Part shown: piece after piece, positions 1 to 3,000 of the stretch | Layout of the letters: every line of letters begins with the position of its first letter | Numbering within the stretch: position 1 is the first letter of the stretch | IMG/VR virus record: IMGVR_UViG_2541047122_000016 | Length of the DNA stretch: 5,251 nucleotides | Origin: a virus | Lineage: Duplodnaviria; Heunggongvirae; Uroviricota; Caudoviricetes | Reading direction: 5' to 3' (one strand) | Program-made: the position numbers

Positions 1-3000
1 ATGGATATACACTGCCACTGTTGCGATTGGCTGTCCTGATACCCTGGCAATGGTTCGCCATTTGGGATCATTTGGCATGTCATGCCACAATCTGAGCCAG
101 GCATTAGCCATACTCACCTCATCTGATACCGAACTTTACCCTCGAACATCCGGAAGAAATCCGGCATGAATATTGTTGGTCAATGCACGACAACAGCATT
201 ACCAGGCTGACCCCCACTGTTAGTCAGGGTGCCCCAGGCGATCGCCGCTGCGACAAAATCATCCACATCTTTCACCAGCCGATCCCTCCGTTCGACGATC
301 TCACGGTAATATTCAGAGCTGTGACTGCGCATACGGGCCACCAGCAGAGGCGGCATTGCCTTTTCGATCGCCGGTAACAGAGCCTGAATTTTTTCAACAG
401 CATCAGGGGTGTCTTTATCCAGCCAACGGAAAATTTTCTGGGTATTACGAGCCAGGGCTTCCGGATGGCTGTCGTCGTACAGTTCCGGGAACGTCATCCC
501 CAGCTCGAAATAAGTCCGGGCTATTTCAGCTGCAGGAACTTTCTCACCGTCCGGATAGGCCCAGGCATTGATCGCCATGCGGATGTGCTCATGTTTGATT
601 TTCATGAATCCCCCTTTCCTTCGCCCTGAGTGGTATCCTTCTTTTTGTAAAGTTCTGGGTTCAAAGATAATTTCCCCTTGGAGTATGCAGCAGCTTCCGC
701 AGCCCTCCCCTTCGGAACTATTTCACCAGGACGCTTACGCCACATGTAAATAGCTTCGCGGGTTATCCCATAAAAATCGGCAACCCTCTGAACAGAACCA
801 AAAAACTGGACAAGTTCATCAACTCGCATTTTACCTCCTAAATCTAAGCATTTTTAGATTGCAAGATAATTTTTTTTAGGTCAATGCAATCTAAAATAAT
901 TTATATTCAATTTGCAGGAGAAAATGATGGAAAGCCTTGGCTTCAGGCTTAAGAGACTTAGAAAAGATAAGGGGCTGACCCAAGTAGAACTGGGTAAGCT
1001 TTCAGGCGTGACTGGGGTTACTATAGGGTACTGGGAGAAAGATCTAAACGAACCAGGTAGCAAAGCTCTAAGTAAGTTAGCCCAGGCATTAGGAACTACT
1101 GAGTCCTATCTCCTATATGGAGTATCGTCTCCTGAATTATCTTTTGTACAAAGTACCTCAGGCACCAAGATCCCCTACCTTTCGTGGGGTGAGGCGATTT
1201 CTTTCCTAATCTTAAAAGGAGAGAAAACAATGGGAAATGTCGATAGAATCACCACATTCTTTGATGTCGAGGAAGGTGATTTTGCCGTTTCAATGCCTGA
1301 TGACACAATGCATAACCCATCAGGATCACCGAGTATCCCAGTTGGTGCTACTGTGATCCTAAGGCCAGGAGAAAGTTATAAAAATGGCAGCATCGTCGCT
1401 GTAATAGTTCCGGATCCGCTTAAAAATGAACCATCTATGACTATAAAGAAATTAGTTATTGATGGGAAGCTTGTGTATTTAAGCCCTCTCAATCCACGCT
1501 ATCAGTCATCCTTACTTACACCAGAGTGTAAAATTGTTGCCGTAGCAAAAGGTGTACAGTTCAACTTATAACCCGCCACGTCCTTTACTTGAGGTCGGCA
1601 ATGCCGACCTTTTTTTTAAATTAATCTAGATTTACCTTGACTGAAAAACTAAATACTTTTAGATTTATTACATACCACCCTACCTCGCCCCACAGAACGT
1701 CGGGCAATACCTCGAGTTACCCGGCAGTGGTCAGGGGTTAAGTAGCCAGCCCGAGGCGTATGAACATGACGGCGGGAACACTTTGTATAACAGCGCAGCA
1801 GGTTTTTAGTTCCGCGACCCGGCGTTAAGGGTAAATGAGGTCAACATGGATATGCTCAATCTTGGCAACAATGAATCTCTGGTGTGCGGAGTATTCCCCA
1901 ACCACGACGGCACGTTTACCGCGATGACGTATACCAGAAGTAAAACGTTTAAAACCGAAGCTGGCGCGCATCGCTGGTTAGCAAGAAACGCTAACTGATT
2001 AGCGCCAGTAAAAACAGGTTTCCACAGGTTAATTTACCCTGAAAAGTCAGGGCATAACACGAAAGCGCACGGCGAAGTTAGTCTCTCTGTATAGGTCGTC
2101 GTTAAATTTAATTCGACCGTGCGCTTCTGGTTGTGGCAATCCGCGAAATGGCGCGGCGGTAAGTATGGCGGGGTTATTCCTTCCCCCGTTGAGGACACCG
2201 GGTTGTCAGGTTGACCATACGCTTAAGTGACACCCCAGCCACAACAACCTCTGTTATCACTTTTCTGGTGATTCGGCGGAAATGGATATCCGCCCTTTTT
2301 AAAGTGAATTTTGTGATGCGGTGAATGCGGCTATGCGCACGCGGAACAGTTAAAGCAGTAAGGCGGTCTTTTACTGGCGTAACGAGCATCAACTAACCCG
2401 ACGTTAATTGTTAACTGGTTAACGTCACCTGGAGGCACCAGGCACTGCATCACAAAATTCATTGTTGAGGACGCGATAATGGAAACGTTATTACCAAACG
2501 TTAATACGTCTGAAGGTTGTTTTGATATTGGTGTTCTGCTCAGTAATAAAGCGTTTACTGAGGATGCCATTAATATGCGGAAATATGAGCCTTATCTGCT
2601 CAATGATAATTCCATTCTTTCCCGAATTGCCCTTATTGAACTTGGTATTTTCGGAGAACGTCAATGACTTCAGCATTTGCACTGATGATGACGGTTTTTC
2701 TTATAACGGGTGAATCACAGAATGTGATTACCGGAATTTATGCCAGTAAAGAATCCTGCCTCCAGGCAAGAGACGAGCAAAAAATTTCTGGTGAATGCCT
2801 CCCGGTAAAAAAAGTATCGCTGTACCTGAATAACGAAACACCGGCTGGATAACCCTCCAGCCATATTAACACCATACCAACGGATTAAAAATGCCAGCAA
2901 TGGCAGGGATTTGTTCACCCTTAAATCTGTAATGAGGTTTATCAATGAGCACTGATAAAGAAGAATTTGCGCTATATTGCGAAGCAAAAAATGACAAAGT

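Follow-up and report, generated by a model that had tools for sequence, protein, structure and literature searches.

The 5,251-nucleotide stretch of viral DNA in IMG/VR record IMGVR_UViG_2541047122_000016 (hereafter the window, meaning the whole of that stretch) is, judging by its gene content, the early region of a lambdoid prophage of the Rac/Qin type, and its segment 1613-1665 appears to be the early-left promoter and operator of that prophage, i.e., an equivalent of P_L/O_L belonging to the dicBp class and to the Sp14-type immunity group. We estimate the probability of this interpretation at about 85%. The Rac/Qin-type assignment comes from BLAST comparison of the window with complete Escherichia coli genomes, and the gene order from a listing of open reading frames combined with Pfam scans. 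Over the immunity segment (830-1700), the window and prophage Sp14 of E. coli O157:H7 Sakai share 99.7-99.9% identity, and 474 of 5,426 complete E. coli genomes, including many from O157:H7, carry this segment. A P_L/O_L analogue had been suggested in a preliminary description of this DNA, and several lines of evidence support it: the order of the genes, an operator motif shared with the repressor/cro intergenic region (O_R), the co-occurrence of that motif with one repressor family, and a position matching those of the promoters dicBp and PL933P. The elements concerned are the following.

602-829, minus strand: Cro-like gene in the YdaS/DicC position (Pfam P22_Cro, E = 1.2e-9).
841-860, no strand: O_R operator beside cro, AATCTAA-GCATTT-TTAGATT, a perfect inverted repeat (0 mismatches).
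863-882, no strand: candidate weak middle O_R site, AAGATAA-TTTTTT-TTAGGTC (3 mismatches).
888-907, no strand: O_R operator beside the repressor gene, AATCTAA-AATAAT-TTATATT (0-1 mismatch).
924-1571, plus strand: cI-like repressor gene, 215 amino acids from the first ATG (Pfam HTH_3, E = 1.9e-12, and Peptidase_S24, E = 5.2e-11).
1591-1617, plus strand: intrinsic terminator of the repressor gene, GAGGTCGGCA-A-TGCCGACCT followed by a T-run (terminator scan).
1613-1632, no strand: degenerate second operator, O_L2, TTTTTAA-ATTAAT-CTAGATT (4 mismatches to the consensus).
1637-1642, plus strand: -35 hexamer TTGACT (promoter scan).
1646-1665, no strand: main operator, O_L1, AAACTAA-ATACTT-TTAGATT (0 mismatches to AAWCTAA-N6-TTAKATT).
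1660-1665, plus strand: -10 hexamer TAGATT (promoter scan).
1671-1845, plus strand: conserved untranslated leader of the early-left transcript (homology with heteroimmune phages).

The repressor gene, its terminator, and the promoter (1637-1665) follow one another on the plus strand and are succeeded on the same strand by ydfA, a DicF-like sequence, dicB, and ydfD. The terminator, whose stem of 9 pairs (6 of them G-C) is followed by T8, lies directly 3′ of the repressor stop codon, and its hairpin is retained in relatives with some base changes. The promoter TTGACT-17-TAGATT, which the preliminary description had placed immediately after this terminator, is indeed found there; it matches the sigma70-type consensus at 9 of 12 positions and has a 17-nucleotide spacer. 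CTTGAC, which includes most of the -35 hexamer, is invariant in all seven same-immunity loci that were aligned, and the -10 hexamer of relatives reads TATATT or TAGTTT. Transcription is predicted to start at about 1670-1673, which corresponds to about 2,707,086-2,707,088 of NC_002695.2 at Sakai Sp14. The G+C content rises from 34% to 56% directly after the -10 hexamer (the leader begins at 1671), and homology with heteroimmune phages also sets in there, at about 1665-1690.

With regard to the operator, the half-site TTAGATT occurs five times in the window against 0.85 expected, a number that none of 200 shuffles reached. The copy said to overlap the -10 hexamer lies at 1659-1665, and the three ascribed to the cI/cro intergenic region at 841-847 (minus), 854-860 (plus), and 888-894 (minus). 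Scanning the window for the full arrangement AATCTAA-N6-TTAGATT returned 841-860 (0 mismatches), 888-907 (1 mismatch), and 1646-1665 (1 mismatch), and no further site with up to 3 mismatches. When two positions that vary among the O_R sites of relatives were relaxed, giving the consensus AAWCTAA-N6-TTAKATT, exactly these three sites matched without mismatch; about 0.03 sites with no more than one mismatch would be expected by chance, and none of 300 composition-matched local shuffles of 1572-1680 produced one. An O_L-type sequence that matches the O_R operators of the same immunity region thus overlaps the promoter. O_L1 covers 14 of the 17 spacer bases and the entire -10 hexamer, so a dimer bound to it would exclude RNA polymerase. 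In the seven same-immunity loci AAAACTAAATA is invariant despite its location in the spacer, while its flanks vary, and the right half of O_L1 reads only TTAGATT, TTATATT, or TTAGTTT. The two O_R operators are likewise maintained in seven aligned loci, 888-907 being invariant and 841-860 being conserved with AATCTAA or AAACTAA as its left half. The operator unit, as read from the sequence, is 20 bp long (7-N6-7) and not a 10-bp palindrome.

The motif also follows the repressor family beyond E. coli. Loci were sampled more widely from E. coli genomes, phage records, and viral contigs, and a repressor scan of genome contigs yielded 5 loci. All 12 loci that carry the repressor family, the window included, have the motif (with no more than 2 mismatches) both upstream and downstream of the repressor gene: two copies 47-54 bp apart upstream, and one or more downstream. 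It is absent from all five heteroimmune loci that were compared (Z887, K-12 Qin, an Actinobacillus phage, Tritos, and Evi). The repressors of Arsenophonus, Phlomobacter, and Xenorhabdus are 45-52% identical overall to that of the window, and their helix-turn-helix (HTH) region is nearly invariant (TQVxLGKxxGV(T/S)GVT(I/V)GYWEKDLNEP). A perfect operator is located between the -35 and -10 hexamers in the Arsenophonus locus and in both Xenorhabdus loci (e.g., AAACTAAGTTATTTTATATT in Arsenophonus and AAACTAAGTTAACTTAGATT in Xenorhabdus); the sites of Phlomobacter (L010) are degenerate, with 1-2 mismatches. Motif and repressor vary together across these sequences, as a repressor and its operator would be expected to do.

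The position of the promoter is constant as well. The most conserved stretch of the leader, its core TAAGTAGCCAGCCCGAGGCGTA (1739-1760), was found as a probe in more than 120 viral contigs, which provided 83 distinct promoter zones upstream of it. In 74 of these 83 zones the best -35/-10 match ends 68-76 nucleotides before the core, and in most of the 83 zones TTGAC(A/C/T), or a sequence close to it, stands at this constant distance from the leader. The zones comprise at least 12 operator types, each with an inverted repeat just upstream of the -35 hexamer and another in the spacer/-10 region.

The alternative that survives best accepts the promoter but assigns the 20-bp motif mainly to the Cro-like protein (602-829) or to some other factor, so that the repressor would not act on 1646-1665. 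The Cro-like gene accompanies the repressor from locus to locus and the motif is not assignable to one protein from sequence; in CP-933P, PaaR2 and YdaS both bind overlapping sites and both repress PL933P. This alternative is nevertheless improbable, as the motif tracks a repressor whose HTH region stays nearly invariant among homologs only 45-52% identical, and as in the lambdoid systems that have been studied the repressor always binds O_L, with Cro sharing those sites and not replacing it.

A second alternative concerns the palindrome AATCTAGATT at 1623-1632, which the preliminary description had singled out as flanking the promoter and which might be an independent short symmetric operator, separate from the 20-bp sites. 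The palindrome is present, is perfect over its 10 bp, and is built of the half-site core, but in relatives the symmetry is not kept: same-immunity loci read AATTTAGATT, ATATTTATATT, or ATCTAGATC at this position, and what they retain is only the right half-site YTAKATY. The palindrome itself is therefore not under selection, and the 10-bp unit was rejected as the operator. Its right half, CTAGATT, is in the window the right half-site of the weak 20-bp site 1613-1632, whose left half lies 13 bp upstream and which ends 4 bp before the -35 hexamer. In four relatives the right half-site combines with a left half at this same distance into a 20-bp site of 0-2 mismatches, which leaves the independent short operator a very slender chance. 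These relatives, in which the good second site is situated 33-35 bp upstream of O_L1, are as follows.

L006 (E. coli O113): O_L2 equivalent with 2 mismatches, 33 bp to O_L1.
L009 (Arsenophonus): O_L2 equivalent with 2 mismatches, 33 bp to O_L1.
L011 (Xenorhabdus hominickii): O_L2 equivalent with 1 mismatch, 35 bp to O_L1.
L012 (Xenorhabdus santafensis): O_L2 equivalent with 0 mismatches, 35 bp to O_L1.

The layout in L012 is [site]-6 nt-TTGAAT-17-TAGATT. Because the equivalent site is so much better in these four loci, 1613-1632 is read as a degenerate O_L2, and the promoter of the window would have one strong operator and a second with 4 mismatches. Another register for the second site, 1623-1642, which would give the 23-bp spacing found in lambda, was also tried and was set aside as poorer in relatives on a by-eye reading of the alignment. 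As for the idea that all of these features arose by chance in A+T-rich intergenic DNA and have no promoter or operator function, the region does have 34% G+C and promoter-like hexamers are no commoner than in shuffles, but the failure of the local shuffles to yield a site and the conservation of both operator and -35 hexamer at the same position across genera make it hardly credible.

Several points weigh against the assignment of 1613-1665 as the P_L/O_L equivalent. The promoter hexamers are not significant by themselves, with 5 such matches in the window against 7.9 expected from shuffles. O_L2 has 4 mismatches, about 0.55 sites that good are expected locally by chance, and the register 1623-1642 scores the same in the window (also 4 mismatches). 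The motif taken alone would fit the repressor, the Cro-like protein, or both. A full-text literature search with the Sakai locus tags ECs2765-ECs2768 returned nothing relevant. Furthermore, the prophage is defective. Downstream of the ydfD-like gene the plus strand carries a RecE fragment, an integrase fragment, and dinI: the 414-amino-acid RecE reading frame (2945-4189) comprises the N-terminal portion only, and the integrase reading frame (4171-4722) is devoid of its N-terminus. At the place corresponding to about 4150-4190, a 2.46-kb exonuclease gene, an excisionase gene, and a complete int are found in relatives, so that, judging by their gene content, a deletion of about 2.2 kb at this position has rendered the prophage defective. 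Since recE and int are truncated in this way, present-day function of the region is not guaranteed.

If 1613-1665 is the early-left control region, the switch would operate as follows. Briefly, RNA polymerase would use TTGACT (1637-1642) and TAGATT (1660-1665), start at about 1670-1673, and transcribe the conserved leader, ydfA, the short DicF-like small RNA (sRNA), dicB, and ydfD. In a lysogenic cell, the cI-like repressor, bound as a dimer to AAACTAA-N6-TTAGATT (1646-1665), would exclude the polymerase, and O_L2 (1613-1632), three helical turns from O_L1, would probably add cooperative binding. The same repressor, on 841-860 and 888-907, would control cro and its own gene, and the Cro-like protein probably acts on the same sites, by analogy with CP-933P. 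Looping between O_L and O_R, which are separated by 758-805 bp, may also occur.

In the O_R region, the site 863-882 may serve as a weak third operator; its centre lies 22 and 25 bp from those of its neighbours, and its sequence is invariant in the alignment of relatives. The cro promoter is likely to be located on the minus strand at 856-884, with TTGACC (884-879), 17 nucleotides, and CAATCT (861-856). Site 888-907 ends 3 bp upstream of this -35 hexamer, and site 841-860 overlaps the 3′ part of the -10 hexamer and the predicted start. An "operator, -35, operator" layout is common to the predicted cro promoter and P_L, with the weak third site 863-882 between the two operators in the former. 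The Cro-like gene is annotated in relatives as "Cro/CI family" or "phage antirepressor protein Cro".

The repressor start in RefSeq relatives is the second ATG (927), and the Sakai Sp14 counterpart of the gene is annotated as "phage repressor protein CI". Pfam detects both a DNA-binding HTH domain and an S24 peptidase-like C-terminal domain in the protein. Among solved structures, P22 C2 is the nearest match to the N-terminal HTH domain (E = 3e-7), and the C-terminal domain aligns to that of lambda CI. The catalytic serine was not found: at the aligned nucleophile position, which we take to be Ser149 in the GNSM motif of lambda CI, residue 128 is threonine (DDTM, codon at about 1305-1307), and LexA has GMSM there. 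The catalytic lysine is retained (IKKL). In addition, the 215-amino-acid sequence has no AG, CG, or GG dipeptide and hence no Ala-Gly or Cys-Gly cleavage site. Classical SOS self-cleavage is doubtful because of the threonine and the missing Ala-Gly site; the E. coli repressor may fail to cleave itself during the SOS response and may depend on an antirepressor. The homologs of Xenorhabdus have serine (NDSM). A protein search of phage records found no studied phage whose repressor exceeds 60% identity, except for two induced E. coli prophages.

The preliminary description also held that the repressor controls rightward transcription into 1680-2300 and perhaps beyond, which fits the predicted genes on that side, as the promoter heads what is by its content a ydfA / DicF-like / dicB / ydfD operon. 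The remaining genes of the region are listed below.

180-605, minus strand: YdaT-like gene.
1846-1998, plus strand: ydfA-like gene, with which the operon opens (Pfam DUF1391, E = 1.3e-28).
2259-2298, plus strand: short DicF-like sRNA with terminator (2275-2294 plus a T-run), from alignment to the dicF of K-12 and Tritos.
2479-2667, plus strand: dicB, cell-division inhibitor (Pfam DicB, E = 6.5e-36).
2664-2852, plus strand: ydfD-like gene (Pfam DUF1482, E = 2.9e-15).

The predicted transcript runs through the leader, ydfA, a non-coding stretch of about 260 nucleotides, the short DicF variant, dicB, and ydfD, i.e., in the order of the dicBF operon, with ydfB and ydfC absent from the window. Homologs of the non-coding stretch precede dicF in other phages. 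The 5′ part of the DicF-like sRNA is nearly identical to K-12 DicF, and a 17-nucleotide deletion and a 2-nucleotide gap shorten its 3′ terminator hairpin; the same short variant is carried by Sakai Sp14. The Rfam model of DicF gave no match in the window at E <= 1. A match to Rfam STnc100 at 2293-2511, which stays below the threshold (29.5 bits, gathering score 47, E = 0.0013), runs from the DicF terminator into the opening codons of dicB. ATGGCGCGGCGGTAAGTATGGCGGGG at 2148-2173, a second conserved non-coding block, is found within the DicF precursor region and differs by one base in Actinobacillus phage vB_Apl-pPE4, where it stands almost directly after the leader.

The leader itself is conserved well beyond the needs of an untranslated spacer. 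It is near-identical base for base behind at least 12 immunity-specific promoters in phages of Escherichia, Arsenophonus, and Actinobacillus, and its conservation is also seen in L001, L009, L010, and L014-L016. In L009 (Arsenophonus nasoniae), a single 3-kb contig has two copies of it (409-570 and 2245-2402), which are preceded by different promoters and operators. Each copy is followed by a perfect boxA-like GCTCTTTAACA, a sequence that the E. coli leaders do not have. The possibility that the leader forms a stable structured RNA of the put-like or riboswitch-like kind was rejected, since its folding energies are no better than those of shuffles (z = +0.14 to +0.75) and no convincing structure emerged (weak consensus structures of -6.0 and -4.6 kcal/mol). 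Apparent covariation is seen in one small hairpin, which lies between GAGUUA and YUAAGUAGCC (ACC/GGU, CCCG/CGGG, UCUG/CAGA). Rfam, searched with the entire window at E <= 1, gave no match at 1600-1850, and a full-text literature search for the core sequence returned unrelated eukaryotic papers only. It is a speculative and rather doubtful suggestion that this 175-nucleotide leader (1671-1845) is an undescribed cis-acting element of N-less lambdoid phages. It might, for example, signal polymerase to read through the DicF terminator to dicB, or it might be a processing or translation-control signal. If the leader is cis-acting, operator/promoter and leader would form one conserved control module.

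With these results, the Sp14-type immunity group gains a concrete operator consensus, AAWCTAA-N6-TTAKATT, and a switch predicted to keep the DicF-like sRNA and DicB silent is identified. This could be used for the annotation of prophage regulons and for predicting homo-immune prophages, and it may aid the study of the DicF copies of enterohaemorrhagic E. coli.

Among the known systems, K-12 Qin dicBp, which has been described as a P_L analogue, shows a 22-fold induction upon deletion of dicA (PMC10448788), and the copies of the DicA operator at dicBp are of the Oc type (PMC3441716). As read here, dicBp is TTGACC-17-TAATCT, with DicA-operator-like repeats in the spacer/-10 region and 35 bp upstream. 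It resembles the promoter of the window in heading an operon of ydfA/DUF1391, dicF, dicB, and ydfD, in following the repressor gene directly and in the same orientation, and in having a 17-nucleotide spacer, an operator in the spacer/-10 region, and another one upstream (at 35 bp, compared with 33 bp in the window). However, DicA has 135 amino acids without an S24 domain, unlike the 215-amino-acid cI-like repressor of the window, and its operator is unrelated in sequence (TTGTTAGTCATAACTAACAA type). In K-12, most of the conserved leader is missing and ydfB and ydfC are present, and the DicF of the window is shorter.

For PL933P of CP-933P (E. coli O157:H7 EDL933), a green fluorescent protein reporter fragment was reported to be repressed about 100-fold by PaaR2 or YdaS (PMC8630535). 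When the reporter primers were compared with phage Evi, the reverse primer matched exactly and the forward primer partially, and together they bracket TTGACT-16-TAAACT at the same position. This promoter precedes the same conserved leader by an equal distance, it has operators in common with the repressor/ydaS intergenic region, and the neighbouring genes are of the YdaS/YdaT type. It differs in its operator motif (GTTTAGTAA type), in its unrelated repressor PaaR2, in the paaA2-parE2 toxin-antitoxin pair between repressor and P_L, and in its 16-nucleotide spacer and -10 hexamer TAAACT. Two of the at least 12 operator types, those of dicBp and PL933P, have thus been examined experimentally, and the promoter of the window is a positional homolog of two promoters under experimentally demonstrated repressor control.

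In lambda, P_L is likewise downstream of and co-directional with cI, the O_L operators share the sequence of O_R and overlap the promoter, and the repressor combines an HTH N-domain with a CI-like C-domain. The three operators of lambda are 17 bp long and spaced 23-24 bp apart, rexAB separates cI from P_L, and N and nutL lie downstream, whereas the sites of the window are 20 bp long (7-N6-7), comprise one strong and one degenerate copy 33 bp apart that flank the -35 hexamer, and are followed by a leader and operon of the dicBF type with no N gene. To P22 c2 the similarity is confined to the DNA-binding domain, in that the HTH domain of the repressor is closest to P22 C2 and the cro-like gene matches Pfam P22_Cro; the P22 operators differ in sequence and length from those of the window. 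The architecture is already established for lambda P_L, K-12 dicBp, and PL933P of CP-933P, and no concept is changed by the present case. What is new, as far as can be judged from the comparison of sequences, is a repressor and an operator sequence that differ from each known example.

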